This document shows, in pieces, positions 7,914-52,526 of a stretch of 64,000 nt of DNA. The DNA is taken from NCBI GenBank assembly GCA_051362555.1, contig CM120646.1:2480001-2544000 (forward strand), read 5' to 3'. The notes under the pieces are model-generated. The model was not told where the DNA came from. It did not search any database and worked only from the letters and a program-made list of their open reading frames with translations. Position 1 is the first letter of the stretch. Every line of letters begins with the position of its first letter. The stretch is from Lingula anatina (lineage: Eukaryota; Animalia; Brachiopoda). The position numbers and the translations under genes are program-made.

Positions 7914-10603
7914 ATGGTTATAGGTATTATATGATCTCTTTTTCAGTGGTGTGTGGTTCCCCAGGTTTCATCAACCTGTGTGATGCCTTGAATGCATGGC
8001 AGCTGGTCAAAGAGTTGAAAGAAGTCCTTGATCTTCCTGCTGCAACTTCCTTCAAACATGTCAGCCCAGCAGGTAAGGAAATGGTTCTGATTGTGAAGTA
8101 TTATGTCAAAATGAGAGAATGACCATTTGTTGATATTTTTCTTTAGCCTCATTCAGAATACATAGGGGAGACTTACTAGTCCGAGGGTCAAATACGGCCA
8201 ACCTACTTGAATATATAGTATACTTCCCCACGGGATATCTATTCGGTGTCTATTATCCGATTAGATGGCAAGCTTTGTAGTGGGTCGCCATATTTGACCC
8301 TCAGACTAGTAAGTCTCCCCTATGTATTCTGAATGGGGCCTTTGTCAGTGAGGTTAATACTTGCAGAAGGTGTACATATCTTCATATACATAAATATACA
8401 TATATTTGTAGATTCTGTGGGCTCATTTACAATGAAACTATCATTCTATGTAGATCAATCAAACTCCGCTAGAGACTGTCGTTGAATTCAATCTGATTAA
8501 CTCATTTCCAACATACTCATGCGATCATTGATATAATATTTGATATCTTCTTTTATCTCTGTGTTAAACATATCTGTATATATCTTCAGGAGCAGCTGTA
8601 GGTGTCCCACTATCATCAGAAGAAGCCAAGGTTTGCATGGTGGACGACATGAAGGACGATCTCACCCCTCTGGCCACGGCGTATGCACGTGCACGAGGTG
8701 CAGATCGCATGTCCTCATTTGGTGACTTTGTGGCGCTGTCTGATGTGTGCGACGTACCAACAGCTAAGATTTTGTCCAGAGAGGTGATACTGGTTTCTGA
8801 GAGTTTTCTATACTTGCATAATTATAGCATTTGGGTACATCTGAAGTAAGAATTTTAATGCAGAATTAACTAAATTCAAATTTTGGTAGTGAAACAAAAA
8901 TGACTTTTTACCCCCAGTTTGTGGAACAATCAGCTCTTTGTAAAATTTTTAGTTTTTTTACACTGATGATATGTCAAGTATTTCTTGGTAATTATATAAA
9001 TTTAAAATCAACATTGTGATGTAAACTTGTCTCCACCAGGTGTCTGATGGCATCATAGCCCCTGGATATGAAGAGGAAGCCCTGAAAATACTTAGAAAAA
9101 AGAAAGGTGGAAAATACTGTATTCTTGAGGTTTGTATCTACCTGTAATAAAAAAATGTCTTAATAATATATAGATAAATGCAGCCAGCATACAGTATGGT
9201 ACTATACTCTAAAATGATACATGAAATGATACCTTTAAGAGAATCCAAAAGCATGTCTTCTTTTGGGAGTTTTTACAGTTCTGTTAACTTTGTCAAGATA
9301 AGTTGTTTTTTTTTATATATTGCCATAGGATTTATATATTCTTATATTTGTAGAACTTGAATAATAAGAGATTTATGTTAAGGATGGGTGCTAAATAAAA
9401 AAGAGAAATAAACGAAGTGAAAAAGTTGGATAATTGTTTGGTCTTGCCTTGTAGATGGATGAGACCTATGAACCCACAGACATGGAGACGAGAACTCTTT
9501 ATGGTTTAAAACTGGAGCAGAAGAGAAATGACGCCTTTATAGACCAGAAATTATTTAGTAACATAGTTAGCAGTAAAAAAGAGGTATGTTTCATTGTTTC
9601 ACAATGATAGTTCAAACATTTAGTTTGAAAACTATAATCTTTGAAGCTGGTTTCATCAGTAAAGAACCAGTTTTCATTTTTATTTAAAGGTGAAACCAGA
9701 CACAAAGTAATAGCTTTTTTTTTTTTTTTTTTTTTTTACTATATTGCATTTATATAAAAGAGTTTAATTTTCTGAACAAAATTCTCTGTTATATGGAATT
9801 TTCTTTCTTTCTTGCTTTCTTTTTTTTTTTTTTTTTTTTTTGTACAAAAAGAAGGTCACTGCAATTATTAGATTAATAAAGTGCTGTCAGGATTTTGTTT
9901 ACATGCATGCATGTAAAAGTTATTGTGTTCATCATGTTATTTTTTCCATACTGAAAGTTTCAATAATTTACATTTTATATAAAAACATGCCATCTGAAAC
10001 ATTTACACACAATTGCATGTTCAGTTGATAAAAATTATTTTGGGCTTTTGGGACTAATTTTAAAGAAATTTTTATCATTATTAGCTCCCAGAAGATGGAC
10101 TACGAGACCTGATAGTTGCCACGATAGCCTTGAAATATGCCCAGTCCAACTCTGTCTGTTATGCTAAGAATGGCCAGGTTGTAGGGATAGGGGCAGGCCA
10201 ACAGTCCAGAATACACTGTACAAGACTGGCGGGGGACAAAACTAACAACTGGTGGGTACGAGAGTGTGTAGATCTGGGTCCCGTATCTCGAATGCATCGC
10301 GTATTGCGAATCGCTATATCAAATAGACGCTACAATGTATTATATGGGGCGAGTTATGGAATCGAGACGCTTACGCATGTGCGCAACACAGCGAAGCTTT
10401 CGAGATACAGGGCCCTGTTCTGGACGAGAAAACTACTGTAAATACAAAACTATAATTAATAAAAAGGCTTTCACAAGTCTTAGAAACTAAAGTACACTTT
10501 GTTGAAATTTCACAAGCCAGTTACTTGTATGTTGATATTTGTGTACAATAATAAAAAAATTATAAGGTCTCAAGCATTTTCAGTCATTAGACAATGAAGA
10601 TTG

Positions 10604-26396: not shown

Positions 26397-29300
26397 ATGG
26401 CTGCAATTTGGTGGAGAGCCTTTTCCTTATTGCTGCTGTCCGCGATAGCCGTGGAAGGTTGGTACTGGAATACCATACTGTGCTTGAAAATATAATTGGT
26501 CCAGTTGTAAACCATGACATCTTATACGGAAAATTATATTGAAAACCCGTAGAGTCTGAAAGAAACCATGTAACGTTTTATAGAAAATTATATTGAAAAA
26601 GCGTAGAGTTTGAAGAAACCATGGCATGCTACATAGAAGATTACATTAAAAACCCGTAGAGTTTGAAAGAAACCTTGTCATGAAATGTATAAAATTATAT
26701 CGAAAACCCGTATAGTTTAAATAAATAACAACATAGAAAACAGATACCAAAATTTTACCGTCTACTCAACTCACACTGAATATTAACGTCAATCTATTTC
26801 TTCCTTCACAGGCAGCACGTATTACATGGACAGCTATACAGGGTCGTGTTCTTCATACTCTTACAAGTACACATATTCCACTAGTCACACAGTGAAGGCG
26901 TGGTACCCCGGCAACAGTTACATGTCCTCTTCCTACTGCTCTCTGGTTTTCTACGCCTCCCCGTCAACAGGAAAATTGGCTTTTAGTTTTTCTTCCTTTT
27001 CTGCGACCAGCTCCATAACTCTTTCATTTTACGATGGTTCTTCCACGTTGGACACCCGGTTGGTAAGTGGAAAGACGAGTCAGATTGTGAGGTTGAACAT
27101 CGGTTTGGGTGCCAAGTTTATTGCTCTAGTCTTTTTTTTTTAATTTTCTTAATGGGACGTGAGATGTACACAGAGTACAGATTTCACCTGTATTGCATCC
27201 GACGATGATGGCTCAAGCTAACGATTGCCATTCCAAGGTACGATGTAAGCTGTGTAGGGGTCCATGTTCCACCCTACCCAGGTTCTTCTAATATTTTACT
27301 TGTCACTGATGCTTGGGAGAGGGAATATAGCCACAGACTCACATATTCGGTTCCAAGTCTAAAAGTCCCTTTATTAAGTCCAAGCATTCAGCCTTTATAC
27401 ACATTATCTCCAGAGAATCTATCTGCATGCCACAGTGGCAGAAACTCATTTAAATACTAATTGCAATGCAATAGATAACAATTGAGGGCTTCTACTTTTA
27501 AGTTACATCAGTTCTACTTATCAGGTATACCTATACAGAGGATGATAAATATTCATTCAAGACTGAAGTAAGGTGAATGATAATATGCTGACTGATTACA
27601 AGTATAAACATAATATGTAAATGAGTGATTTCATCACATGCATTTAGTGGACCTTAACATATTCCTTCTTTTCCCACAAAAAAAATTATGGTTACATAAT
27701 TTTTTGAAATAAAGATTCCACAGAATGCTCAAAGATAAAATTTAAACAGCTAAACACTTATGCAAAATATCTGTCATGATTCAATTACAAAAAAAAAAAA
27801 TCCATATATAATTGTCAAATATCATTTCTTTAACTAACAATTGTAATTTTAAAATTCAGTTCATTGTCTAATCCATTGCTGTACAAAGACGTCGTTATTC
27901 AAATGAAATTAAATTTGAATTTTCATGCTGCCAAAATATTTTGACAGAGATAAATGTCCAGTTGTAATACAGATTGTTCAAACAGCTTTCTAATGGACTG
28001 TACATTTAAAATCTCACCAGTTAAACAATTCAGTATCAGGTATATCATGAAACTATATTTTTACCTTCTATAATACATATCTTGGGAATCTCCCCACATG
28101 TTGGAAATTTACCATTTTTTAATAAAAAAAACCTGCTGTCACATATTCTTTTATAATTCAATTTAACTTTATCTGTAAACACAATTTATGTTATTAATTT
28201 CAAAATTTATGTAAGTCATGAATTATTTGGTGCAATTTTACTTAAAACATTGAAACAAGAATATCAAATACTGAGCCAAGTGTAAAATATCTATAAATCT
28301 CATTTTTCGAACCTACAGTACAGCTCTAACTGATGCATTATCCTTTAACTGAATAAAAAAAATCATATCTTAATTTGCAGTGTGGAAGAAGTGTCCATTT
28401 TAGTTTCTCTGCCATAAACTTTCTCTGCACCTTTCTGTTGTCTCTGTTAAAGTCCCATTTTACACCTGTCCATTCTTTTGTGTTCTCACAAACATTTTCT
28501 GTGTCTGAGCCTTGTTTGTCTTCATTCTCTACAACTTTAACCACCTCACCTGCACTTTGTTTCATCTCTACTTCAGTAAGTTTGTCTCTGTCTGTATCTT
28601 TAAAGTTAGAAAAGTCCATTCCCATCCGTTCGTCAGTAAGTCCTTCATGAGCATAATTTTCAAAATCTGTCACAGCCCTTTTATTTACAGCATGTTTCTC
28701 CTCAAACTGTGGGTCATCATTATCAAGTCCTTCATTAGCACTCTTCACATTATCTGTTAAAACATTATCCTCTACAGCAAGTTTCTCATCATACTTCAGT
28801 TCACCCATTTTACTCTCACTTCCAATAAATTTGTTGTCATCATCATCATCATCATCAGTTTTCAAACCTAGTTCTTGTTCTTTCTCAACATGCCTTTCAC
28901 ATTTCTCCCCTTTCTCGAAATCAGTTCCTTTTTCTTCCTCTTGATCATTTTCAATCACAATGTCCTTGCTGAGTTCATTCCCATCATTTTCTTCACCTAC
29001 AACTTGTTCCATCACAAACTCCAGCATACATTCATCTTCTTTAGCAGTACTCAATGTCTCGACTTCAGTTCCCCTCTCCATTTCTGATGGTCCATCTACT
29101 TTGCTTTGGTTTCTATCTTTAACTTCTTCCTCTGGTTTTATTTCAGACTCTGCAGAAATTTCATTATTTTGCTGGTCCAAACAGCCATATTGTCTTTGTA
29201 ACAAGTCGGCTAGCTTGGACAGGCATTCCACCAGTCTGCCATTAATGTTATAGTCCTTTTCAGAATCCCAGTCATCATCTTCATACACATACTCATCTTC

Positions 29301-32300
29301 AAAGTTGGATCCATAGCTATATCCATAGCTACATGTATATCCCTCCCCCGCAGTGACCCTGGTCGAGCTCGCCATTATGTAGGGGTCCATGTTCCACCCT
29401 ACCCAGGTTCTTCTAATATTTTACTTGTCACTGATGCTTGGGAGAGGGAATATAGCCACAGACTCACATATTCGGTTCCAAGTCTAAAAGTCCCTTTATT
29501 AAGTCCAAGCATTCAGCCTTTATACACATTATCTCCAGAGAATCTATCTGCATGCCACAGTGGCAGAAACTCATTTAAATACTAATTGCAATGCAATAGA
29601 TAACAATTGAGGGCTTCTACTTTTAAGTTACATCAGTTCTACTTATCAGGTATACCTATACAGAGGATGATAAATATTCATTCAAGACTGAAGTAAGGTG
29701 AATGATAATATGCTGACTGATTACAAGTATAAACATAATATGTAAATGAGTGATTTCATCACATGCATTTAGTGGACCTTAACAGCTGGTTTGTAGAGTG
29801 TGTCATACTTAGCGTTGAGGTGAATTCAGAAATGATAATTTCGTTGGGAATCCTCAACACATAAAGAAGGTTTATTTGTTTTCTTGATGAAGAAAGAAAG
29901 GGGATATTTATTGTTCATTACCAACATAAGACCAGTACATGTCATGTTGAAAATGTTATAACTGCTTCATCAATTGTAAAATAAAGCTCCAAGTCATACG
30001 CTCATAACGAGAAAATAACACGAGTTCTGTTGGACAAAACTGAACCTTGTAAACATGCTCAGTTTTTGTTGCTGTTGAAATTTGCCACAAATTTAATGTC
30101 TGCAACACGTAATTATTGAAATACTTACCTATAACGTTATGTTTTCCAGCTAAGGTTAGATAACTCCAACTCGGCGCCTTCTTCCACATATTTTACGACC
30201 GGGAGCACGTTGCGTGTCTATCTGGTCAAGACCTATTCCTCCAGCACTGGCTACAGTTTTGAGTTCAGCGTGTGGAGACACACCGGTACTTCAACCACCC
30301 TGGGGACTCTGTCGCGTAAGTATATATATGTTTGAGATAATACACTGTCACCCGAGCGATATATGCCACAACACCTCGAGCGTCAGCGAGAGGTGTTCAT
30401 GGCATTTATCGCGAGAGGGTGACAGTGTATTATTTGACATACACACCGAGAAAAAATACAGTCATTTCATCCTAAAACACCCCTAAAACCGAATAAAGTG
30501 CCCCTATATCACGCTCTAGAGATGTTATACGGAATAAACTCGTCCACGTGCGCTGGTCAACTCCCGCCAAATTCTTACGTAATGTCTGACCAATTTAGTC
30601 AATTTTTGCTAAATACTTGTCGTGGACGTTCAACCGTCGACACTGACCATGCGCGTGTCAGCTGAGCCACACCTAGCTGGTACTGCTGCGGAAAAAAGGT
30701 CCCAAGGCAAAACCTCTACTATTTAGTGACATTTCTGATAAAAAAGGAGCATCAGACCGGAATAAAGTCAAACTAATTTTTCACAAGTGCAAAGGAGAAA
30801 GAAATTTACTTGTTGGTGATATTTCTGACAACGACGCAGTTTCGGAATATAGTCAAGATCGACGGATGTTTATTACAAGTTCACAGGAGTAATAATTCTA
30901 CGTTTTGGTGACATTTTTTACTACGAGGCGGTTTCGGAATGTACATGTGCTGGTTTTCAGAGCATTTATGTGCTACATGTAATTACAAGTTCAAAGGGGA
31001 AATACATTTGATTTTTACCGATATATCTGATAAAGAGGAAGAATGAACAGCTTAAAAACAAAACGTAAATAACACAACCCTCGTTAAAAAGTTATAGATT
31101 TACAAATAATCTGTATGCACGTGTGGCTTAAATGTATACTAATTCCCGTTTTCAAACCATACCCATATGATATGACTTATTGAAAATGATAGATAATAAT
31201 TATTAAACGTGAAAAGTTTATGCTAATTTAGTTTATGCTAGTTTTTAAGTGTGAGAGATTTTAAATGTCTACTGGTAGGTATATAACGCAAGCAACGTCA
31301 CTATTCTCTTGATGCCAAGAAGGTCACATGATCACACTGTCTTTTGGCTTTCAGTATTTAAGAGACCACGACTGATTTAACCAAGATGTAGTCGTGAAAT
31401 TCTAGACTACATCGAGGTAAAATCCGGGTTTTCCGAGAGACGCTACGCAGAAATGTCGAGTGAAGCGAGACATTTTTGGGTAGCGGCTCGAGGTTGCCCT
31501 CGATCTTCACTGAAGCTTGGCTAAATGGACAGGCTTCAGTGATCATCATATCGCCACGGTCATATAACATCCCTAGGTATGTATATATAAGTACAGAGCA
31601 GGGTTAGTCGTAGTTTTGGGGTCAGAATATGGGACGAATGCCACCTGTACAAAATAATTATGGGGAACGGACGACGGTTCCTAGCGGACTACCATCCCTC
31701 TTACTCGCAGGTGAAGGAATGATTCTAATAACTTCTGCATAGCAGACATCTCTGACAAGGGTGAAAATTGTGTTAAAATATAATAGGTTTGGCATTTCGT
31801 CGACATAACACTTTTTTAAATTAATCTATCCCATGGAAAGAAGGGACAGGTGGGCTCAGTATGAGGTGAATATTGATAATGTCATCTAGTATCATTAAAC
31901 GGATGAATCATCTTGCTCGTTTGTATCTCCATCTAGGTTAAGTTGTATTCATATTTCTTTAAATTTAAATCTTTTAATTTCTTCTTCTTCTTCTTCTTCT
32001 TCTTATTTTTTTATTTATTTTTATTTATTTATTTTTTTTTGAGTGATACATTGATACATTTATTATAATGGTTTATAAATCTTCATTCCCAGTTCCTATC
32101 TCAATGGACGACAGCACACAGTGCGGTACCCAGACTAAGTACGTGAACAGCGGCCAGTACCTGTGGGTGAACGCATGGGCCCCTTCCAACACCTACAGGA
32201 CCTCCACCAGCTCGTGTACCATGTATTTCAGAGCGGCAATCTCCACAGACTACCTGGCGGTCTCCTTCGCTTCTGGAAGTCTTTCCATCTCCAGCAGCTA

Positions 32301-35300
32301 CGTGACGTTGTATTTTTATGACGGGTCCAGCACCTCTAGTACTTTGCTGGTGAGATTTTTTCTATTATACATATAATCTTTGTGTGTGTGTATGTGTGTG
32401 TGTGTGTGTGTGTGTGTATGAGTGTGTGTGTTTGTGCTCGTATCGGCCTAGTCTTAATGAAATAATAAGTTTGTAAATCCTATAAATTTCAGTGTCGCTT
32501 TCATTGTGAATTTTGCCTCGGATCAGACAAAAAAATGATAGCATATTGTTGACGAGCGCTACCAAACATTATTTTAAGGATATCAAAAAAATATGTAGCA
32601 CTTGTAAACATGTATTTATTTTCAAAGAGAAAAATCATAAAATATTGGTTTGGTAAGTGAGGAAATGCATAAGTTAATACAGGAAAATATAAACTGAAAA
32701 ACTTTGCTTATGTGGTTAAAACTGTTTAGTCAGAGCTTTAAGAAACATGAAAGGTGACATATATCATTGTCATTTATATCTCACTTTCACTTTCAGACCA
32801 GCCTCAGCTCTTACGACAGCTCGCCAAGCAGTGCATACTACGCCACAGGGTCCTCCCTGACTGTGTACCTAAGTAACGGCTACAGTTCGTCCATCAGTTT
32901 CAGTTTCCAGGTGTTCGCCACGTCAACTCCAGTCACCACCACTGCCACGCCGTCGTCTTCCAATAGTAAGGTTTTAACGGGTTGACTGAAAACTTTCTCT
33001 CTCTCTCTCTCTCCCTCGGAATGTGCATGTGTGTGCGCGCACGCGTGTGATTGTGTCTGTGAGCTATTAACTTGCTTGTTTTCAAGAAACATGGAAATGT
33101 TTAATGAAAATTGAACAGTATGTACATGTAGAACCGTAGCCAGCAAATTTCTTTTTCAGATATTTGGGACTTTTGTCATGAAACTTTTGTTGACCTAAAT
33201 CAAATTTACCCAGAGTGGACCTTAGCCCAGAAAAAAGGCGGGTTCTTTCTACCCCCCCCCCCCACCCCCCCGAGCTCCTCCCCCCCCTGGCTATACGGGC
33301 CTGTTATGAAACAAATCGAATTGGTTCATTTTTTTCAGCAAACTACCGTTACATGGATGACAGCACGGATGATTGCAGTGACACTATCTACATGAGCGAT
33401 GACCAAACTGAAATCGTCTCTGCTGCGTCGGGTAGCAGCATGTCCTACTCCAGTTCGTCTTACTGCTATTTGTATTTTCGAACCAGAGATAGTTCCGCCA
33501 CAATGAAGGTCAACGTGACTCAACTGAGCCTCTATAGTTATGGCACCCTGAAGTTTTATGACAGCCGTTATACGTCTTCAAGTCTAGTACGTTAATATTT
33601 TTTAAAAGTCTTATTCTAGTGTTGAATTGCCCGAGTCAATTGTTGAAATGCAATTCACGTGAAAAGCCTAATATTCCAGAGGAAGTAAACTTACATATTT
33701 ATCAACTTACATATTTATCTAACTGTATTTGTACATATTTATCTAACAATTACCAGCATAGCTGAGGTACGAATATGTTATTCCGTTGATAAATACATGT
33801 AGATGCAGTTTTTATTCTTGACAATACCCGTATTTTGATATGCGGTATAATACTATAAAATATTTATTTACGTTCATGGGATACTTAGGGCGCATTCAGA
33901 AAAAGTAGATCCGCGGGTCAAATATGGCTGGCCCACTTGAAAGCTTGCCGCATAATCCCCAATAAATTCCCCGCGGGGATCACGCCGCAGGCTTTCAAGT
34001 GGGTCGGCCATATTTGATCCAGGGATCTGTTAGTCTGCAGATCAACTTTAGTACTTATGTACTATGGGCCGGAGGCCTTGAAAAACTGAATAAATTCTTA
34101 TTATATCAACTTTAGTTGTGAATACGGCCATATTCATACCGATTCCAATGTCGATTTTATATTAATCTACACTGTATGTTTTCAGCTGAAGGAGTACAGT
34201 TACACAGATTATGTTGGATCGACCCCTGAGTATTTCTACACATCGGGGCAGTATCTTTCCGTGAGGCTTTACCGTAGCTCCTCCTCCAGCCATCGCTTCA
34301 CTTTCAAGGTGTCAGTTGGTAAGTGTACCTACTTCCGCTTCCTGTCCTCTCAGACTGGGTTCCCATCCCTAGTTCGATCTAACAGGATCGGTCCATCTCC
34401 ACGGGGTCTCTCGCTAAATTGCTTTCAGACCAAACGGCTTATATGTCTGGGACTGAAGCTGCTAAGGGATAGTTAATTACAACTCTCAGCTTCAGCAGGC
34501 GTGACAGACATCGGAGCCGCCCAAGTTAATTGCAATTAAGCGAGAATCCCCTTCGATCCAAAGTTGGTACGATAGGGTCTGGGAATGTTCTCTCAGACCA
34601 TCTGCCAGTCTCAAATTCCTTACTGTTGATTGCCTTAAAATGTCTCTTGGTTTCTAGAACAAAAATCGGGCCTTAATGACTGGCTTATGGTCGACAAGGC
34701 AGTTTGATATCGACAGTGTACAGGCTCGTAGCTAGCAATTTCAAAAGGGGGGTTCTTTTTCTGAAAAAGTGAACCTTTTCCCATAAAAACTTCATGTACC
34801 TAGATCAAATTTTACCCAAAGTGGACCTTTTCTCAGCAAAAGGGCAGTTCTTTCGAATCCCCCGAACCCCCTGGCTACGGGCCTGGTGTAAATCAAAGCA
34901 ATGGCAAATGTAAAATTATTGAAAATATCTTATCTTTGTGTGAATGAATTCAAAACAGTGGAGTTATCTTTTGACATAAACATGATGCTGTCGTCTTGTG
35001 AGAAAATCATGGTGGCTGGTCATTGAAGTATGCAAATAATTTGTGTATTTTTCCTGTAGTATTTTTTCACCAGACAGTTTTTCCCCCTCTGACAAAGCTT
35101 AGCTTTTAAAACTCATCAATAGATGCATCATTCATGTTTATGCAGAAAATCTGTGATGTTTCTAGAGAAGTGTTCTTTTAAAATACGCTCAAGTTTGACG
35201 ATGTTACTTCCAGGAATTAGATATCTTATTCTTTTGCACTATATTTTAAATAATAAAAATTGTCATTTATTTCAGTTCCATCGGGTTTGTCAGACGGTGC

Positions 35301-36214
35301 CATAGCGGGCATCGTTATTGGTTCACTGGGTGCCGTGGTTCTGTTAGTGATCGTGATTAAGGTTTGCTCATCATCCAAAAAGTCATCCCCAAGAACCCAG
35401 ATCAGACCGCGTGAGTTTCTTTTCATATACGGTTTGTTTTGTTGAGAGAGAGAGAGAGAGAAAGAGAAAGAGAGAGAGAGAAAGAGGGAAAGTTCGATTA
35501 GACGGGGGATGTGAAAGAGGGCTTTGAGTAATAGGATGTTTGGGACTGATGCTTATCGAATATGTATAATAAAAAGTACTCTGGGAATATTGTTGGCATT
35601 AAGAAACCCATTTTGGGTCTGTCTTCCAGAGTATCCGCCCCTCCACCCTACTTACAAGTTGTTTTCACCATAAATAATTTCAGTGAGCCAATTTTGCTGT
35701 TTTTTTTTTTTTTTGTTTGTGTAAATATTTCTTCACCTGCAGGTATTTCTTAGATTTAAAAACGCCCAGGTAAATTATACGATACACTAGAACGCCATTG
35801 ATCGTTTGTATAATTTTTTCAAAATGTGATCGTATGTCTTTCGTAGATAACACACGCAATCTCACCACCACTGCCTCGACGGTCAACTACACCACCACCT
35901 CAGGACAGATGGGAATGCAAACCCAACCGTATGGCGGATTTGCCTCTCAGGGCCCCGCCTACCCCCCGCCGTCACAAGCTTATGGACCAACCACATCCAT
36001 GGACTCCGCCTACCCCCCGCCGTCACAAGCTTATGGACCAGTCACATCGCTAGACCCCGCCTACCCTCCGCCTTCACAGCATTTCTCCGCCCCTCCACCT
36101 TCTTACACGGATGCTACTGGAGGTGATGGCCTATACGCCCCGCCTCCGCCACCGCCTTCGTACTGCTCAACGCTCAATCAAACAGACTCTGCATACAAAC
36201 CTGGGTTTTCGTAG
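26397..36214 (+). CDS. Type I membrane protein: signal peptide, three Ser/Tyr/Thr-rich CUB-like domains, TM helix, Pro-rich PPxY tail; 9 exons, 595 aa
   Basis: Exons 26397-26457, 26812-27062, 30150-30315, 32093-32349, 32797-32965, 33339-33586, 34186-34318, 35276-35410, 35847-36214 (1788 nt in frame). Signal peptide MAAIWWRAFSLLLLSAIAVEG. A two-exon unit occurs three times (MD..C...C.L.F....L.FYDG / Y.TG..L.V.L....FSF.V), typical of divergent CUB folds. TM GAIAGIVIGSLGAVVLLVIVI. Tail has AYPPPSQ x3 and PPSY x2. Confidence 0.85.
26528..26722. repeat. Degenerate ~54-bp minisatellite, ~4 copies
   Basis: Recurrent AAAATTATATTGAAAACCCGTAGAGTTTGAAAGAAACCATG in intron 1 of the CUB-like gene. Confidence 0.75.
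27253..29784 (-). mobile_element. Non-autonomous LTR retroelement (Gypsy-type hallmarks), full length, recent insertion
   Basis: Two 407-bp direct repeats (27253-27659, 29378-29784), apparently identical, with TG...CA ends. 4-bp TSD GCTG (27249-27252 / 29785-29788). Minus-strand PBS TGGCGAGC at 29374-29367, 3 nt inside the 5' LTR. PPT GGGAAAAGAAGGAA next to the 3' LTR. AATAAA inside the LTR on the minus strand. Confidence 0.93.
28338..29390 (-). CDS. Intact 350-aa (345 aa from the second Met) acidic ORF carried by the LTR element; no recognisable Gag/Pol domain
   Basis: Longest ORF in the window. Extremely D/E-rich, with a short helical-looking segment LVECLSKLADLLQRQ and a basic/aromatic C-terminus. 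No CCHC knuckle, D(S/T)G protease, YxDD or integrase motif seen. Confidence 0.6.
   Translation of the reverse strand: MDPYIMASSTRVTAGEGYTCSYGYSYGSNFEDEYVYEDDDWDSEKDYNINGRLVECLSKLADLLQRQYGCLDQQNNEISAESEIKPEEEVKDRNQSKVDGPSEMERGTEVETLSTAKEDECMLEFVMEQVVGEENDGNELSKDIVIENDQEEEKGTDFEKGEKCERHVEKEQELGLKTDDDDDDDNKFIGSESKMGELKYDEKLAVEDNVLTDNVKSANEGLDNDDPQFEEKHAVNKRAVTDFENYAHEGLTDERMGMDFSNFKDTDRDKLTEVEMKQSAGEVVKVVENEDKQGSDTENVCENTKEWTGVKWDFNRDNRKVQRKFMAEKLKWTLLPHCKLRYDFFYSVKG
30321..31590. mobile_element. ~1.27-kb non-autonomous element with a long subterminal hairpin (Crypton-like; tentative)
   Basis: Hairpin 30337-30433 (ATAATACACTGTCACC...CTCGAGCGTCAGCGAGAG...GGTGACAGTGTATTAT). Small CGAGG..CCTCG stem near 31490. 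TATATATA runs at both ends and a CpG-rich interior. The family assignment is from recalled architecture only. Confidence 0.45.
34350..34560. mobile_element. Palindromic MITE family copy (related to 37290-37520; remnant at about 57420-57530)
   Basis: AGACTGGGTTCCCAT.CCTAG.TCGATC...GTCTC.C.CTAAATTGCT is shared, in inverted orientation, with 37440-37520. Confidence 0.65.
34721..34885. mobile_element. MITE, CAGGCCCGTAGCCAG TIR family (copy 2), 5-bp TSD GTGTA
   Basis: Reverse-complement homologue of 12722-12889, flanked by GTGTA on both sides. Confidence 0.85.
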
Positions 36215-36717
36215 GGTGATGTTGCGTCGGGGAGGTCCCAGAATTCGACACAAGAGACGTGTACAGTTAGACCCACACGTGTAAATATTTTCTGCAAATT
36301 AAAATGTGCAGGTAATGTGCATGTGTGCAACACAAAATTGCCGTAGGACTGAAAATGGCTCGAGCGTATGATGTGCCTTATCTGAATGCCCGAGTCCCAT
36401 TCACCGGGGAGTTCCTTCTGTGCCAAATGTTTTCCAGGAGAAGGTCCTGAGACGCGGTCGATTCTAAAGATCTCCATCTTATCTTTATGAGCCACAGTAT
36501 ACATGACAGTCACTAAAGTGAAGAATTGCCTCCAAAAGGACAATATTTGCCTTAAGTACAAGACAAACCAAATGTAATGGCTCGTTTTTATTTATTATAT
36601 CAATTTTGGTGGAAGGGTTCATGTACAAAGTACGTGTTAAAATTTGCTGTAACTATGTCCCTATTATAAAGCTGCAGTTGATGACATTCTGCCCCAAGCC
36701 CCTCTGATTTGTAGGCC

Positions 36718-36952
36718 CTATATACAGTAAAAGTTAACTACACGAAGGCCATGTGTATATTATTACTATATACAGTAAAAGTTAACTACACGAAGGCCAT
36801 GTGTATATTATTACTATATACAGTAAAAGTTAACTACACGAAGGCGTTGTGTATATTATTACTATATACAGTAAAAGTTAACTACACGAAGGACATGTGT
36901 ATATTATTACTATATACAGTAAAAGTTAACTACACGAAGGCCATGTGTATAT
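36718..36952. repeat. 48-bp minisatellite, ~4.9 near-identical copies
   Basis: Unit TATACAGTAAAAGTTAACTACACGAAGGCCATGTGTATATTATTACTA, head-to-tail with no spacers. Confidence 0.95.
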
Positions 36953-37289
36953 TAATCTATCAAAAGAGCAAATGTGTGATAAAACATGTCCAAAACGTCC
37001 AGTGTTATGCCAAATTGTGATCAAATGGCCGCATTCTTATCAGAAGACTAACTCGTCTGCCAATCAGTTATGGCAACCCACTTTTAAGCTTGCCGTTTTA
37101 TCTCCTAATAGACACTGAATAGATTCCCCGCGGCCATTAAAGTATTTTAGTATTTAAGTGGGCCGACCGTATGTGATCCGTGGACTAGTTTGTCCGATGT
37201 TGCGATTGCAGCCTAAAAGTTATGTAAAAGTTTGCGGTGCAGCACCATTACTGCTTAGTTAGCAAGAGTTAGGGACCGTTCTCACAGAT

Positions 37290-42243: not shown

Positions 42244-44422
42244 TCAGGACGAGCACTCATCCATGTGTTCTAGCAGGTCTAGATGACTTGCGGCATCGAA
42301 ATACTTGTGGCACGTTGGGCATCGAAGCCCTTCACTCATTTCAGTCCTCAAACCAAAACCACCAACGTCTTGTTTACTTCTCTCAATCACAAGTTGGAGC
42401 TCTGCTTCAGAATCAAGTCTCTCGTCAGCAACACCGCCGACGTCACAGCCATGTGATATACCGGGACCTTCTGATTGGTTCAACTTGTGCTGCTTGAGAT
42501 TTTCGTCCAGTTTTTGGGAGACACTGCCTGTGGCCGCTGGACCATCAATGACGTCACAATCTTCTTCTAAATCCCCGGTGTCTGGGACAGTGCGGCCCCA
42601 GCAGGTTTCCCCACTTGGCCCTCGGCTACGTAGTCCATACGGTGTCTGCAAATAGGAAGTGAAACTGCTTTAGTTTGTGATTTTATTGCTTAATGTACAA
42701 AGCGAGACGAATGTTAACACTAAGTATAAACGCCCTCTGTACACCTTTAGTAGGCGTCTGACAAATGAAAATATTTAACGGAAGAACGGACATGGTTTCC
42801 CTTCATAATGAAACAGAATAGGATTTAGACTACTACTACATGTACAGATACTACTACTAGGCCTACTTCTTCAACTACTACCAATTCGACTACTATTTCT
42901 TCTTCTACTACTACTACATTGTACTACTACTGCTAATTAAAAGTTACGTAAGAAAACCCTCCCAATAATTATGTTATACAACTTTAAAAACCACAAACCT
43001 GGTTTCCGTAATATTTCTGTTTGTAGTTAATCAGCGCAGCCTCTCGTTGGTTGGCCATAGCTGTTGCTGCTGAATTTTCATACATGTCAAGCTGTAAAGG
43101 GGAAAAGTGTCTTCAAGGAGACGTCAAAAAGGCACGTGTGAAAGATTGGCATGCTACTTATATTACATGTATAAGCGGTCTTTTCATCAGTGTAAACTTT
43201 TCTATTACGGGAAAATTACAATTTTTCGTTTTCTTTCGTCTTTCGATCATCGAATTACCTTCATCCCATTTACATAATCACAAAAGGACAATAAAAACAA
43301 ATATCTAAATGACAAAACAATAATGTCGATGTAAAATGTTATGCCTTACCTGGCGTTTAAGTAATTCCAACTGCGTCTCCAAATCTGAAATCTTTGACTG
43401 TGCGAGTTCACGATCTCGTCTCTCCGCCTCAAAATCTTCGGTACAAAGCCGGATCTGCTGTTTCAGCATCTCTGTGATGTCATCTTCAGCTCTGGAAGCG
43501 TTGCTCGATAGGTGGCGCACCTGTTCCTCCAGTTCTCCGATTCTTTGTTCTTTTTGGTTACATAATAGCTTGAACTTTCGTAGTTCGTCTTCAAGCTGCA
43601 ATAAACGCAAATAAATCAATAAATAAACAATAATGATAATAATGCATCTTTCTACGAAGAAACGATCGCCAGCAAATCTGAACAACATCATCGGCTCTTT
43701 TGAACAGGGCTGCTTTATAATTTACTTCGAAAAATTTTAAGTTCTTACAGCAAAGTTTGTTCGGACTGCTAAGAGAAGTCTTTAGAATGTTCATGTAGAA
43801 GTTTAAATCTGTTAAACCAAAAAACAAGAATTATAGTCAGTTTAAAAACCTCGCACTGTGAAATGGGTGACACCATATTGGCTTATATTCCCCAGACATT
43901 GAAAAACGTATATGGAAGTCTAATTTAGTTGTCTCTTGTGCTTCCTAACTAAGTCAACATATTTCCCTTTTCCGCTTTATATTAGTATTAGGTTTGAAAA
44001 GGTCCAATCATCAAAATTATCAGGACTTTCATTTTAACTTCCTAGTTGATCTGGAAATCACAATTTGCGGGTGAAATTGTTTTATTTCAGCATGACTCAA
44101 AATATCTAATCGACTTACCGCTTCTTTTTCCTCCTGAATCGCATTCACTTTCTCTTTCGTAGAGATGAGTATTTTATCAATTTCTTTTTGCGTGTCCTCG
44201 TTAAGTTCACCTACTGGCGACTGTTTGGATCGGTCAACTTGACATTTCAAGCTGGATATTTGTCTCTGAAGTGTGACGACAAACGCATCCCTCTGGGAGT
44301 TATATACTTGCCACTTCATATTTGCCTGTACAACCTGACAGAAGAAAAAAATGAACAACAACTATGTTTTACATTGTGGAATGTTACGGAGAGGAGTAAG
44401 CTGGAAAACGATAGCGTGGTGA

Positions 44423-44457
<35 letters not shown>

Positions 44458-47400
44458 CACGAACTTTGGACAGACAAAGTTGTTGCTAAATCTCTATGAT
44501 GGTTTGCTATAAATACTGAAAAATCACCTCCTATTTGAGTCACGCGTGCAGGTGAATGATGGTTGCGTGTCCTCGGCCTAATCAAACTCTGGACCTTGAA
44601 CTTTCGATCATAGCATTCAGATTTTGACCCAAATAGATAAAACCGTTCACGCCGACCTTGCGTGAGTACGCATGGTCTTTGTACATGTAATAAGGTAAAC
44701 AGATAACCTTATGGACTCGACCCCTTTGCCCTCATCAACAATTGCTATCATGACTATGTTGTAAATTTCCAGCCAAAATATGTCGATATTCCAAGTACGT
44801 TTTCTCTCGGGGAAAATGTCAGGAAGAAATAATTTTTCAACTTCCTCTTATCCAATAGGCTGTATTGATATAAATATAAAAGTGAGTCTTATCTAAAGGG
44901 AAGCAATTGGTAACTTTACTTACCTCAGTTAACTGATTTCGCAGTTTGGCAATTTCACTTTCATAGCGCTGTCTTTCCTGAAGGGAAATTGAAAATGTTA
45001 AAAACTTGATCGTGCCCATGAAAACTAAATTAAAGGCAACACTATACATATATTCTAAAGTATATATATTTTCAAAATAAAAAACTAGTAACATAAGGGT
45101 AAACGAATTTAATTTTGAATGTGTATTGACTCGAAGGAAACCCATAGTTAATAAAAAGGCAAATTATTATTCTTCAATTTACCTTTTCAACAACGTCTTC
45201 CTTTTGTTTCTTTGAGTCCCCGGTTGCTCCCTTTCTCTCTAGCTGAATAACCAACGCCTTACATTGCTCTGCGGTCGCCCTCAACTGTTGCCTCAGCGTC
45301 TCTGTTTCTAGACTTAAAGAATGGTTTTCCTGTTCGCAATGGTGGCAGCTATGTTTCAGGTTTTTTAATTCTTCGCGAAGTCGGTGGATTTCTTGTAATT
45401 TCTCGTCTGGTGATGCGGCAAGGAGATGTTTCAATTGTCTGATTTCTTCCATCAGAGTTTCGTTCTTTACCTGAAAATACCACAACCTAAGGTAAGAAAA
45501 GCAATAAGTGATTTTTTGTATTTGTGTTGGGGGGGGGGGGGTACCTGAAAATTTACGATATTATGCAATTCTCCCCCCCCAACCAAAAAAAAAAAAAAAA
45601 ACAAACTGAAAACCACGTCCCTCACCAATTTACAGTGTTAACTTATGTATGTCCCTTTCCTCTTCCCTCAGTCCCTCCCTCCCGAGCACTACTTTATACT
45701 TTCCTGTACTCTTCTGTACTGTACTGTACAACACTCACACATCAAAATAAAATCACTTCAGATAAGTTCATTTGCACTGATTATTAATCTCTCTACACAC
45801 ACCATTCTTTATTGGATAGTTCGACCACACTTGCTTGCTGTTCACGAATCATGTGACGTCTCACATTCTCTGTCTATATATAATATCTCAATCCCAATTA
45901 CATTGCTCATCGATACACGTGGCTCTGAGTCCTCATGGACCATTTCACATTAGGCTTGACGAATCATCACACGATGCCTTGATTTTGTTTAAAAAAGGTT
46001 ACATTCAAACCCGTGGGAGGAGCCACGTCGCACGTGAACGATAAGAAAGTGGTCTGACTCAGTGTCACACACCCCAGGGGAAAGAAACACAGGGGGGTAC
46101 ATTTCGCAAGCACAAAAGTCAGCCAGGAATCAAACGTGCCTCAATTGTATTAACAGACCTGTATATGTTGACCCCACTATTATACAATATGTATACTCTA
46201 CAAATAAAAAAGCCAACAATAGACGCATGACTCAGCACAAAAAACGTGCTTTTTGTTTGATGGGTAACAAAGCACGGGGGGGGGGGGGGGGGGGGGGGGG
46301 ATTACTAAGTGATTGCGACACATATTCAAACATTAATATCATATCTAAGTAGGAAAATTAAATATAAGTTCTTATGGTGGAGCAATACCTCTCCGTGACA
46401 ATGAGATTAAGTGAATCACGGGGTCAAAATTTAGGCGTGTGTCCTCGTATCTAGGGGATGAATGAATTTGCGGGTCTAAGCTTGCCTTCTTTTCACTAAC
46501 ACAGTCATATATATGTCAGTTTATTTGGTATATATAATAAATGTGTGGCATCCATCATATCAATATTTTATCGTTTTAATCCTGATCTTAACATTGTCAT
46601 ACATTCACCACATTTCCCATTTCAGCATTTGAAGGTGATAAACTGCACATATTTTTTCCAGAGCAATTGAAGGATTTTGATCCGAATTCTTTGTCAAGAG
46701 AGTTATTGCCATTAAGTATTGCTAGGATCGATGAAGCAGAATCGACAATGTGTTACTTTGCCGTCCATGTGAACTTTTAACAAATTAAAAAAATAAAATT
46801 TATCATGATACTAAGGGCTTTAAATTTGAACAGCTTTCTGATCATGTTTCCAGTTTTTTTAGGTGTGAGTTTAACAGGAGTTTAGGTTTAACAGGGCCTA
46901 CCCTGAGGTCATTTCCCAGTTACAAAGTCAAAATAAATCCTGTTGTCTGTATCTCGTATCAGACCCTATACTTCAGATGACGTGCTCAACTGAATGTACA
47001 CCTGGCTAATAGCAGATCCCCTCTAATATCTGGGGCTTTGAAAATAGTATATAAAGTTAAAGTATATGTTATAAAGTAATTTTGTAACTCTGGTCCGCTT
47101 GTTGTCTGAATCTGTTGAAAAATTATCATATCTTTGAACTTGTACACTATTTTTATTTAGAGATCCAGATATTAGAGGGTGGCTACCATGTCCTTTGATT
47201 CCCTGTACTACAGGGGACTAAACAAAGTATTTTTAAATAATCTCCTTAAAAGGAGATCGATATTGTTGACAGTAAACTTCTAACTACAGCCACATTATTT
47301 TACTTACCTGCAGTTCTGAGAAACTTGGAGTCTGTATGATATCCTCATAGTTATCAGTCGGGACACTAGAAGCACTCAACTCTGTCGGCAAGCTCATCGA

Positions 47401-47679
47401 ATGTTCCCGATGTTTCCCGAAGTCCCTGACTTCCATGTCACCCCCTGTGTCCAAGTTTTTGTTGGAACTCACAGGGACATTAAAACAGCTTGGTAAACTT
47501 AACGTGTCCTCGCTGTTAAACACCGGTAGACCAGCTGACAGGGGACTTGGCTCCACGTGCTCCGTGGGCGTTGGCGGAGGCGTCGGGGTCTCATGATTTC
47601 TCCCCCGCCCCTTGGACCCTTGCGTGGCGACCGACTGAGAACTCTTTTCGATACGAGTTTCGCGATGTTCCATAAACAT
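42244..47679 (-). CDS. TNIP2: TNIP2/ABIN-2-like (CEP55-related) coiled-coil ubiquitin-binding adaptor: EABR, UBAN and C-terminal zinc finger; 7 coding exons, 556 aa
   Basis: Exons 47679-47308, 45470-45183, 44977-44924, 44334-44119, 43595-43350, 43091-42999, 42645-42244 (1671 nt, all phase 0). EABR-like ANMKWQVYNSQRDAFV. UBAN motif LKQQIRLCTEDFEAERRDRE. C-terminal LRCPTC...LLEHMDEC finger. TNIP2 versus CEP55 orthology needs a phylogeny. Confidence 0.85.
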
Positions 47680-48170
47680 GTGTATTGACTTGACTTGGTG
47701 TGATTTTTGAGTTTCAGAAGTTTACCTGTATAATAAGTCAAATTGTGGGTTAGTCTGTGTGTACTGGTATATATAGACATACACTGCGTAAATTATACCA
47801 ATGTTATGCAAGGCTTCCTTGGGTATTTCTGTTTAACAAAAAAACCCATACTGCGCAACAACATAAATTTTCTGCTGATATTGACAGAAATGGGCGACCA
47901 AGGTTGTCTAAAATCAATGTCGGACAGTGATGCAACATTAAAGTGAATTTAATGAATCAGCCCATCAAACCATTTGAACAATTGCTCATAAGAAATCTTT
48001 TTTAATCCTATCCTCTGGTGACCACGTCAAACTGAGTATTTCACACCAGTAGATTCAATTTGTTACGAAGTTCACAACATTACGATAAATCTTATTATAT
48101 TCACGTAAAACAGTTAAATGTATAATACTTTAGAGTTAATAAAGTGCGCAGAATGTCTTAGAAACACGGT

Positions 48171-48261
48171 ACTCACCTTCTTTGTCGCGTTGCTATGTTT
48201 GATTGCGAATTTGCGATGTTAACCTCGAACCCTATTTATATGTAACATTAGGGGAATCCCC
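48171..48261 (-). promoter_or_regulatory. Predicted core promoter and non-coding exon 1 of the TNIP2-like gene (kB site, TATA, short exon, donor)
   Basis: On the minus strand: kB site GGGGATTCCCC (48261-48251), TATAAATA (48240-48233), consensus donor AAG/GTGAGT at 48177/48176. A matching acceptor at 47727-47726 lies 46 nt before the ATG. Confidence 0.7.
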
Positions 48262-49866
48262 TTAAATATATATAGGTCATGAGTACTGTAAACCGGTACT
48301 ATCTAGATCCTTCTAGATGAACATTAACACAAAGACAAATTTAAAATAGAACTAAATTTTTGACTCTCCTCTTTGGGATTTTTATCTCATTCAACTTTGT
48401 AATTATTTAGAAGTTCCTCTTTTTTTCTGAAAAAATTAATGAATTTCCGTTGTTGATTTTTTACTTTTTATTCTATGTAATTAGTTTCTTTCGTTAAGTA
48501 CTAAAATTCCAAGTGTAGGGCTACATGTAGACTCAGGTTTTTTATATTTATCATATATATTAAACTTTAGTAAAATGGAATATTGTTTATTTCATGTTAT
48601 TATATTTTAAAGTAAAATGTGCTTTCTTTTTCATATTGAAACCGAAATTATTTTATTTTAGACTTAGAAATGACTGGTTTTCTAAAAGAATGCCACAGAA
48701 ACGTGAATGGGCATTTCTATTATATTCTTTCATCTTTGTTTCCCACCTAAAAGCATTTCTTTAAAATTAACTATTTAATAATTAAAAAATGAACCGAACA
48801 AAGAACTAAAAATATTTCAAATGAAAAGCCAGATAAAAATAAGATCAACTTGAATAAAAAGAAAACAATGGATATATTAATTAAGCAATTTAGTATCTTC
48901 AGTATATAGAATAAAAACTAGTTCAATATAATCTTTGAATAGTTAATTTATCTTTGAAACACACTAAGTTACTTGCTAATTGGTCATTTAATAAAGTAAT
49001 TAATAATATGTATTATTGAATTATCAAACTGATCAATAAAATGAATAGCTATTGAATCAATAAAGGGATAAATAAATTAATGGGTCAACAGATTAAGAAT
49101 GAAATACAATAACAATAATTAATATTAAGGAATCGTGTCCTATTAATTTATGCAAAGAGGACTATTTCCCGAGAAAGAGAGGTGACAGTTCGGTGAACAT
49201 GTTTCATCTTGTATTAGCTTTTCCGAATCAGATTTATTACGGCTTAAGAAAATTTTTATATATCATAAACACTGCATTTTATCCTGCAGTGCAGTGGATT
49301 GAGAGATTATAAAATATTCCTGTATGTGGCAGTGATCTTGACTATCTGGTAAAAATATATATGGCCTACAAGCCAAATTATTGTCCAATTTTTATATCAA
49401 ATACGCGGCAACCGCTTTGATGCCGTTCTCCTACCGTAGTATGTGGTGTAGATTTATGAATATTTTTACGAATTTCATTTAATTGCACCATGAAGAACCT
49501 ATGTGGATGTGAGTCATACTGTATGCTAAATTATTGTGGCACTTGACTGTCACAGAGCAGTGATGTGTCGCTGTCTTCATACACAAACACACACATACAT
49601 ACTTAACACATACATACAAATATTGAAAAGGTGGAATTTGACCAAGACACTTCATTTTTCTCTTCGACCGTTCAGGCACAGTCAATCAAAACATACAGTG
49701 TACGCGTAAAACAAAATAGAAACAACTCCTGTTTCTAAACAAGAGTTGCACCCATAAGACAATTTTCAAAAGACACAGAGATCAGTTTGAAGACGATGGG
49801 CTGAGCATGGGAAGTTCGTGTCGATTTACACCAGGTAAACCTGGTTATGTTGCTATCTGAAAGCTT

Positions 49867-49878
49867 GGGGAATTCCCC
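49867..49878. promoter_or_regulatory. Perfect palindromic NF-kB site GGGGAATTCCCC
   Basis: 12-bp palindrome about 1.6 kb upstream of the predicted TNIP2-like TSS. Confidence 0.55.
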
Positions 49879-50293
49879 TTTTCTTTGTGAAAAAAAAACT
49901 AACCCATACGTGCACTACGTCATCAAGAAATTTCCGTTTCTTTCGCATCAAAAACACTTAATTTTTCTATTTTCGTTGTTTATTTTCGCTGACATATTTG
50001 TTTTAAATAGGTCCAATAATTTTCATAAACTTGGGTATTTTTTAAATAAAAGGTTTGAAAGATGAAATTAAAGTGTAATCATTTTTTTAAATGATAAGAA
50101 ATTAAGTGCTGAAGCGATCGCCATGTAGGCCTATATTGATGTAAAAGATATGGTGCACATGTAAATATTCTTTATTTAATATTTTACTAGTTACATATAT
50201 GTTATAATTGAGTCACGATTACCAGATTTAGATACTCTTGCCAGTTCTGCTCAAATGTTTTCTTTATTTTAGACTTTATTCATAAAAATGTTC

Positions 50294-50359
<66 letters not shown>

Positions 50360-51442
50360 CTTTATTGGAATAATGCAACCCGAAGGTTGAAGTTATACAT
50401 ATAAATATACTTTATTTATTTATTCATTTATTTATTTACCATTAAGTCAGAGAAGCCTGGTCATTTTTGGCCCTGTTGCACACTACACAGGTAGTCGCTC
50501 TCACCACCCTGGGGAGTCACAATTGACGTGTTATGTCAAATTAATAAACCAATACATTATTTTATGGCAAAATAACAAGGGCGGCTCGTATTGTGGGTCT
50601 GTTGAAGTCTTCTTAATAAAATGGAAATATTACGATTATCACGGTTATACTACTGGTTAACATTTGATGTGGATATCATAACAATATGAACCTCCGAAAC
50701 AAAAGAGTGGTGTCCCCCACCCAAACCTGTTCCTCCATTGCCTGGTTATATGTAGATCATGAACCTAACGGTGAGCTTCCCAAACCCTCATATGTGTCAG
50801 CATTGTCCTTGACAATAAATAAATAAACAAATAAATAAATAAAATAAAATAAAATTGGGTCTGGTCGTGTTCATGATAAGCACAGCACAAAAAATAACTT
50901 CGAAAACGCCTGGTGGAATTTTCAAAAAATTATTCGTATTAACATCACCCCATCCCTATTACAGTTGAATAGTACTGATTAAGACAAAATCATACAGGTA
51001 AGGATTAAAACAATTAACAATATTTATTTTTTAATAATGTAATGTGTATTACTTAAATTATAGTTTACAACAAATAGGAATGTTGACAATCACATCATTA
51101 TCTGTGCCTGAAAATTGATGAAAACAAAAGGGAGAAGCGCTTAGTACATTAGTATATCATTTGGCTACAACAAACGCATACCATATACCATTTCACAGAG
51201 AACTTTTTTCTCAATTACAGTACAAGAATGGAACCTTTCTAAATGCTTGCCAAAGTTTTCAAACTAAAAAGTATTACACGTAGAGCAAAACCGCTTTTTT
51301 GTTGAAGAACCCGTTGTCTAACATACTTTAAAAAAGGGTGTTTGTCAAAGTTAATGGCATTAAGGGGACAGCAAAATTTCTTCGGTAGAACTTAAGTTTT
51401 TATGAAAATGGCTCGCAGCTTTATTTGTGAGTAATAAGTAAC

Positions 51443-51536
<94 letters not shown>

Positions 51537-51791
51537 ACACTTTGTATAAACTAGATACAAATATTTAGAATACAGTTCTTATACTCTGTCATATATTGAA
51601 TAAGAAGCTTTGTGGATTATGTTTCAAGGAATTTGAAAATGAAGCACATTTTATACTGAAAAGCGCCATACACAAAGAAAAATCAATGTCACTGAGCTAC
51701 ACTAGTTTTAGTACCCTAGTTAAATAATATATCTCAAGCTCAGAGTCATTGTTAAATACACTTGAACACACACATATAAAAGCAGGGATGC

Positions 51792-51824
<33 letters not shown>

Positions 51825-52096
51825 GTAGTAGTAGTAGTAGTAGTAGATTTATCGCACATATGACTAACATAGTGTCTGAAATAGCAGTTAAAGTGTAGGC
51901 CCACACCCAAATAACATTGTAAACATTGCCGAGAGTCGGAAAAAAAGAGAGATGCAAAAAAGTAATGGAATTTTACAGATGTTCCTGAAGGACAATCACT
52001 TAAGTCAAGATGGTGATTTATTAAAAGAAGGTGCAACATCCATTTTAATGTCATGAAACCGTTTTCCCAGAAAATTTTGCATATGTATATCTAAGA

Positions 52097-52243
52097 CAGG
52101 GCCGTAGCCTCCGGGGGGCAGGGGGGGCAGCTGCCCCCCCTGGAATTTGGAATTTTACACACCACACCCTCCCCCCTCGGTAGCTTCGCCCCCTCGTGTC
52201 CGCTTACTGCCCCCCCTGGCATTTTGCTCAGGCTACGGCCCTG
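52097..52243. mobile_element. MITE with CAGGGCCGTAGCC TIR and 5-bp TSD TAAGA
   Basis: TAAGA|CAGGGCCGTAGCCT...AGGCTACGGCCCTG|TAAGA. Confidence 0.85.
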
Positions 52244-52526
52244 TAAGATCAGCGTTGCAAATTATTTTACGTACAATATTGGACGTTATTTACCTTATTA
52301 TGTCCAAGGCACAATGTATATGAAACAAGAAGTAGAGGGTTATGAATATTATCTCTGATATACATTATTTATTTACGTTATTAACTTATTATCATGGGAA
52401 TTCTTTAACCAAATACAATTGTTATTAAAACTTAGTTCTTATAGTGCTTAGTGCTTATATAGTGCAATTTTGTTCTTACAGTGCCATTAAGCACAACTTA
52501 TACATTATCACATGATTCTTGGTGCA

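Follow-up and report, generated by a model that had tools for sequence, protein, structure and literature searches.

Can a retrotransposon with no recognisable enzyme of its own keep a private protein, and what would such a protein do for it? The question is raised by a long terminal repeat (LTR) retroelement in the brachiopod Lingula anatina. The element lies in the stretch of DNA analysed here, called the window (64,000 nucleotides of contig CM120646.1, assembly GCA_051362555.1, positions 2,480,001 to 2,544,000). Its description as an LTR retroelement is near certain. It carries a single open reading frame (ORF) of 350 codons, the product of which is called P0001, and comparison of sequences supports the view that copies of the family hold this frame open. 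The element probably belongs to a non-autonomous LTR family that is driven by Gypsy elements and maintains a non-capsid ORF in the gag position.

Structure and class of the element

The original prediction listed two identical LTRs of 407 bp, a GCTG target site duplication (TSD), a primer binding site (PBS), a polypurine tract (PPT) and an interior of 1718 bp, and all of these are present in the sequence. The span of 27249 to 29788 that it gave includes the TSDs. The element proper runs from 27253 to 29784 on the minus strand and measures 2532 bp. Its features are the following (window coordinates).

27249-27252, no strand: left copy of the TSD, GCTG
27253-27659, minus strand: 3' LTR, 407 bp, TG...CA, identical to the 5' LTR
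27660-27675, minus strand: PPT adjoining the 3' LTR, with 15 purines in 16 nt
27660-28337, minus strand: non-coding AT-rich tail, 678 bp, GC 26%, no pol remnant detected
28338-29390, minus strand: ORF of P0001, 350 aa, with relatives P0002 and P0003
28638-28795, minus strand: decayed internal repeat, 87 bp (29 codons), 72%; P0003 has a 16-aa gap in this region
29357-29374, minus strand: putative PBS, 3 nt after the LTR, in frame, its start overlapped by the second ATG
29378-29784, minus strand: 5' LTR, with TATAAA at 29524, AATAAA at 29500 and the first ATG at 29390
29785-29788, no strand: right copy of the TSD, GCTG

How old is this copy? The two LTRs agree at 407 of 407 bases, which bounds their divergence below about 0.7%. 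The insertion is therefore recent, provided that the two LTRs were not collapsed during assembly. Within the LTR, TATAAA is found at position 261 and AATAAA at position 285. The PBS-like sequence begins with TGG, and since the second ATG overlaps its start, the PBS is read in frame and translated. It presumably resembles tRNA-Arg(ACG). ARAGORN found no tRNA gene in the window and no tRNA-like sequence in the LTR, for which Rfam gave chance-level matches only (best E 0.8).

The duplicated target site is 4 bp long, with no 5-bp match. Animal Helenus elements make 4-bp TSDs and have PBS regions in common only with Gypsy elements, according to the available part of their description (PMC10886601). 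Because these Gypsy-dependent elements make 4-bp TSDs, the TSD seen here suggests Gypsy as well, although it is not diagnostic. No enzyme of such an element was recovered: protease, reverse transcriptase, RNase H and integrase had no Pfam match in the ORF or in the six frames of the tail, and a search of these tail frames for a pol remnant, with stops read as X, returned 0 Pfam families. By eye, the tail looked similar to the C-terminus of an integrase, which Pfam did not support.

Could the element be a terminal repeat retrotransposon in miniature (TRIM)? It shares with TRIMs, including the Helenus elements of Lingula, non-autonomy, a PBS and a PPT, 4-bp TSDs, dependence on Gypsy and the host genus (PMC10886601). 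However, as far as the available text of that source goes, TRIMs measure less than 1000 bp and are non-coding, and Helenus LTRs hold a tRNA-like sequence, whereas this element is 2532 bp long, coding and equipped with another PBS (PMC10886601). The PBS motif does not occur in the Helenus/Ajax supplement (PMC10886601). Identity with TRIMs or Helenus was rejected on size, coding capacity, the absence of a tRNA-like LTR and the different PBS.

A long open frame shared by a family

The ORF (29390 to 28338) starts at an ATG 13 nt inside the 5' LTR and continues without interruption. Its product was described as rich in Asp and Glu, and these residues make up 26.3% of P0001, with a net charge of -47. 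The original prediction also considered that a frame of this length was unlikely to be open by chance, and the controls agree. When the bases of the ORF were shuffled 2000 times, the longest frame averaged 58 codons and never exceeded 134. The codon-position bias is strong, and the other two frames of the same strand contain 22 and 61 stops. On these three grounds, the openness of the ORF is not due to chance.

P0001 has a short aromatic and acidic start, a predicted helix at residues 43-81, a long, acidic and disordered middle, and a basic and aromatic end of 50 residues (12 basic and 6 acidic among residues 301-350). FoldIndex is below 0 for 98% of the residues. AlphaFold (AF2) placed loose helices at 43-81, 116-130 and 321-333 with a predicted local distance difference test score (pLDDT) of 33, from an alignment of 3 sequences only, so that this model proves nothing alone; the last 55 residues reached a pLDDT of 49 from the same thin alignment. 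The protein is predicted to be disordered throughout. Judging from composition and FoldIndex, no stretch appears long and hydrophobic enough to form a capsid.

Does P0001 resemble any known protein? The earlier statement that it lacks protease, reverse transcriptase, integrase and zinc-knuckle motifs stood, as neither a CX2C zinc knuckle nor a D[ST]G protease motif is found in P0001 and no Pfam family scores above its cut-off. The tetrapeptide YEDD occurs once, at residue 36, within an acidic run. Nor does the protein align to an ordinary gag product: Pfam and PDB profile searches gave no match to a Gag family, and none of 7994 candidates of 616-2000 aa proved to be a longer relative in what was a weak search. 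Shorter relatives were likewise not found (0 of 399 candidates). NCBIfam and phages gave no match, 0 of 372 pattern matches in metagenome contigs and 0 of 52 in viral contigs were confirmed, and the ESM Atlas returned no usable match, which implies neither absence nor novelty. Pfam matches to DUF4320, DUF7167 and DUF2860 lay below the cut-off and were rejected as effects of composition, as were two PDB profile matches (E 0.09 and 0.2, below cut-off). A chromodomain likeness of the protein end, noticed by eye, was unsupported by Pfam.

Two relatives were found among 918 candidate proteins of 192-613 aa, and both are from Lingula anatina. P0002 (XP_013404243.1, 351 aa, named 'LEO1-like') is 79% identical to P0001, and P0003 (XP_013398889.1, 330 aa, named 'IWS1 homolog') is 76% identical. 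The LTR ATG is the start of one of them, and the PBS ATG that of the other. Both yielded 0 Pfam families at E up to 10, and neither has a Leo1 or TFIIS-N domain. Because they start with residues coded by the LTR or PBS and match no Pfam family, P0002 and P0003 are copies of this element, and their names appear to be misannotations driven by composition. The two Lingula entries would then have to be corrected in the databases to products of this element. The two accessions were found in no paper.

How large is the family? In the DNA run X9, the median depth relative to the flank median was 26.5x over the tail, 16x over the ORF and 106x over the LTR (contigs, 27660-30600). Such a ratio is not a copy number, and it is read here only as tens of copies together with solo LTRs. 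Mixed loose ends at the LTR borders fit dispersed copies; the 64-kb window itself contains no second copy. The X9 contigs all differ from the window letter at many listed sites, including sites in the LTR, and one contig fits the flank at 29806-30086 with 136 unplaced letters on the element side. These letters and this contig fit a private young insertion and a putative empty site in that animal. With P0002, P0003 and the X9 depth, the proposal of a young non-autonomous LTR element was borne out and can be extended to a family in which further copies hold the ORF open. X9 contig joints at 29020-29727 (depth 612) and 29106-29402 (depth 80) have short sides and suggest deleted or duplicated variants of the family near the 5' end. 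A literature search by title and abstract start brought up no description of the family, which may be catalogued in Repbase, in Dfam or in supplements to the Lingula genome paper.

The family is transcribed over the ORF at a low level. Partial read sets of three RNA runs (about 6, 6 and 25 in 100) were used, and the ORF was covered in two of the three, with a mean depth of 3.7 in X12, 3.0 in X18 and none in X15. The level is about 2 RPKM (reads per kilobase per million mapped reads), a rough figure. The first mate lies on the plus strand for the whole ORF depth in X12, which by rule of thumb indicates ORF-sense RNA. The majority of the reads reach a similarity of no more than 90-95% and thus come from other copies. 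At 28544 (codon 283), close to a short duplication in P0003, four X12 reads diverge from the reference. The tail is covered by X9 DNA but has almost no depth in X12; early polyadenylation, splicing, AT dropout or diverged tails are possible reasons.

Probable maintenance of the frame and the proposed role of its product

Is the reading frame maintained by selection? All ten internal gaps between P0001 and P0002 are in frame. At one in three per indel, the chance of this is 2e-5, or 5e-4 when three of the gaps are counted as triplet slippage. The indel rows that are shown (12 of 31) comprise eight in the tail, four in the LTR and none in the ORF, and one of the 12 is a multiple of three. The identity of P0001 and P0002 is uneven, with 103 of 115 residues (90%) at 6-125, 61 of 75 at 126-200, 50 of 85 (59%) at 201-285 and 56 of 65 (86%) at 286-350. 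Compared with residues 201-285, the two ends differ significantly (Fisher p of 5e-7 for 6-125 and 3e-4 for 286-350). The net charges of the three proteins are -47, -48 and -42, and in all three a conserved C-terminal region leads to an end point that differs by no more than 2 residues. We consider it likely that selection keeps the frame open.

Single ORFs in non-autonomous LTR elements have precedents. The mammalian MaLR elements, which are related to ERV-L, are a non-autonomous LTR family with a single internal ORF and no pol. The plant TR-GAG elements are likewise shorter than 4 kb, with a complete set of cis signals, a single ORF, no pol and apparent activity; their ORFs match Copia or Gypsy Gag, whereas the present ORF matches no Gag family and its host is an animal (PMC4350172, available part). 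BHIKHARI of zebrafish (Bik-1, Bik-2/crestin) and ENS-1/ERNI of chicken are also young, expressed LTR families with one long ORF and intact full-length copies, and Bik-2 and ENS-1 are non-autonomous, as is this element (PMC12067270). In the part of that account available, however, their ORFs (617 aa in Bik-1) adopt a Gag fold that includes a capsid domain, and the elements are vertebrate retrovirus relatives, whereas here the product has 350 aa, is predicted to be disordered and contains no detectable capsid. The BHIKHARI ORF, long uncharacterised, proved to be Gag (PMC12067270), and it serves as a warning case. The element thus shares with TR-GAG and BHIKHARI a single ORF in the gag position, and a match to a Gag family by sequence was not found. 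In the sources as available, TR-GAG, BHIKHARI and ENS-1 encode Gag with capsid; the present ORF encodes no recognisable Gag. A reading of it as a remodelled Gag N-terminus, raised in the original prediction, is kept in play because the ORF sits exactly at the gag position. A different model is CERV of the C. elegans element Cer1, a protein that is neither Gag nor Pol and acts on the RNA of its own element (PMC10309623). CERV is made from a spliced mRNA of a gag-bearing element, at least in the available text, and its likeness to P0001 is claimed for the role only and not for the sequence. Unclassified LTR elements are not rare: 41 of 223 annelid LTR elements were left unclassified by TEsorter (PMC8220671). 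A recent LTR expansion has been described in L. anatina (PMC13121700).

What might the protein do? RNA made from the 5' LTR of such elements serves both as mRNA and as genome; a tRNA primes synthesis at the PBS, and the PPT primes the second strand. An autonomous Gypsy helper would copy the present element in trans: it would package, reverse-transcribe and integrate the element RNA, and its integrase would make the 4-bp TSD. The ORF would be a remodelled, capsid-less Gag, whose N-terminal helix may dock on the helper Gag or on a host factor while the basic C-terminus may hold the element RNA and so favour its packaging or export. Selection would maintain the frame and both protein ends, and the middle would act as a spacer in which charge and length matter more than letters. 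In its entirety, the best explanation is that of a recent copy of a multi-copy family, copied in trans by a Gypsy helper, with a disordered acidic protein selected as a cis-acting RNA adaptor; we judge it evenly poised between right and wrong. A wider proposal is that gag was replaced or stripped down to a capsid-less disordered acidic protein that is translated through the PBS, is selected and promotes spread as an RNA adaptor, an export factor or an anti-silencing decoy. This proposal is put forward tentatively, with the balance tilting against it. The adaptor role taken by itself is a guess, and an unlikely one. If the wider proposal were true, a non-autonomous retroelement would pay its way through a private non-Gag protein. 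An open, transcribed and capsid-less ORF that is kept would mean that a private disordered protein can benefit a parasite of a retrotransposon. The few tens of natural copies in one genome make a test of selection cheap.

Several points weigh against this explanation and against the selection on which it builds. The RNA is low, comes from other copies and says nothing of translation. No helper element was seen. The 12 ORF variants shown (from 40 of 245 variant rows, 205 being hidden) include 10 non-synonymous and 2 synonymous changes against 798:194 sites, which is the neutral ratio. The case for selection rests on three proteins, two of which are gene models, and small introns in the models of P0002 and P0003 could hide frameshifts. 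Protein databases contain open copies only, and some of the gaps lie within triplet runs. The tail is rich in AT and in homopolymers and gains indels more easily, and recombination or repeat turnover could make identity uneven.

Is the ORF perhaps what remains of an ordinary Gypsy Gag that lost everything from the capsid on, a long acidic N-terminal part whose frame is intact only owing to the youth of the family? Its start at the LTR and PBS is the start position of gag, the neutral ratio of the 12 variants agrees with such a deletion derivative, and the available parts of two papers describe an N-terminal helix ahead of the capsid in Bik-1 Gag (PMC12067270) and LTR expansions of recent date in L. 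anatina (PMC13121700). Against it, the conserved C-terminus stops at the same point, to within 2 residues, in all three proteins, 10 of 10 gaps between sequences that are 21% divergent keep the frame, no coding remnant is present in the tail, and 0 of 7994 proteins of 616-2000 aa scored, if only in a weak search. We regard this as unlikely, though it is the strongest of the alternatives. The frame might instead be kept for the sake of the RNA, with far-running ribosomes protecting the transcript from nonsense-mediated decay or routing it to packaging while the protein is incidental. Amino-acid changes at a neutral rate among the variants shown, within a frame that is kept, would fit, as would the in-frame gain and loss of repeat units. 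However, conservation is much higher at both ends of the protein than in its middle, the net charge is steady, and the 678-nt tail and the LTR still lie downstream of the stop, which makes the idea improbable.

The host may also come into play, as user or as source of the protein. A product that serves or addicts the host, used in development or in shell tissue, would have a precedent in the zebrafish Bik-1 Gag (PMC12067270, in part) and would agree with family RNA in two of the three runs. This RNA is low, though, the copies are young and scattered, X9 seems to lack the haplotype of this copy, and protein, metagenome and viral searches gave no relative outside Lingula; such a use is very improbable. 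Equally improbable is a captured piece of a host gene, a LEO1- or IWS1-like acidic protein carried as passive cargo. Capture of a host sequence was among the original suggestions, and the names of the two relatives speak for it. The comparison did not support it: P0002 and P0003 have 0 Pfam families and begin with residues coded by the PBS or LTR, and searches of near, longer and shorter proteins turned up no host parent.

Genomic setting and other features of the window

The element is predicted to lie inside an intron of a host gene. The prediction is based on splice signals and frame.

27063-30149, plus strand: predicted host intron, GT...AG, phase 0, with the element antisense inside it

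The flanking exons are at 26812-27062 and from 30150, and a similar exon pair is found at 32167-32349 and 32836-32910. No RNA joint was seen across the predicted intron, and Pfam gave no family for these exons. The host gene (26812-36214, plus strand) has many exons, among them repeated Ser/Tyr-rich exon pairs, which we take to be CUB-like; it has no Pfam match. Its last ORF (35774-36214) is rich in Pro and Tyr and contains 51-bp repeats.

Further repeats were observed around this gene. The segment 30327-30600 is a second repeat of very high copy number, where the X9 depth reaches 45,000, compared with about 90 in the flank, and where all three runs have RNA reads. At 33907-34028, inside a predicted intron, a 54-nt inverted repeat with a 14-nt loop resembles a miniature inverted-repeat transposable element. 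A 48-bp tandem array occupies 36670-36957.

Elsewhere in the window, the purine enzyme ATIC/PurH is represented by an exon at 10085-10441 (plus strand; Pfam AICARFT_IMPCHas, E 5e-15). Exons with coiled coils and a C-terminal end resembling a C2H/C zinc finger are found at 42244-53359 (minus strand). They match a NEMO-type CC2-LZ (E 1e-6, below cut-off) and a Death domain (E 1e-7), and may possibly form one gene for an adaptor of the NF-kB pathway. Finally, a fragment of a mariner-type DDE transposase lies at 55993-56439 (minus strand; Pfam DDE_3, E 3e-5, below cut-off).

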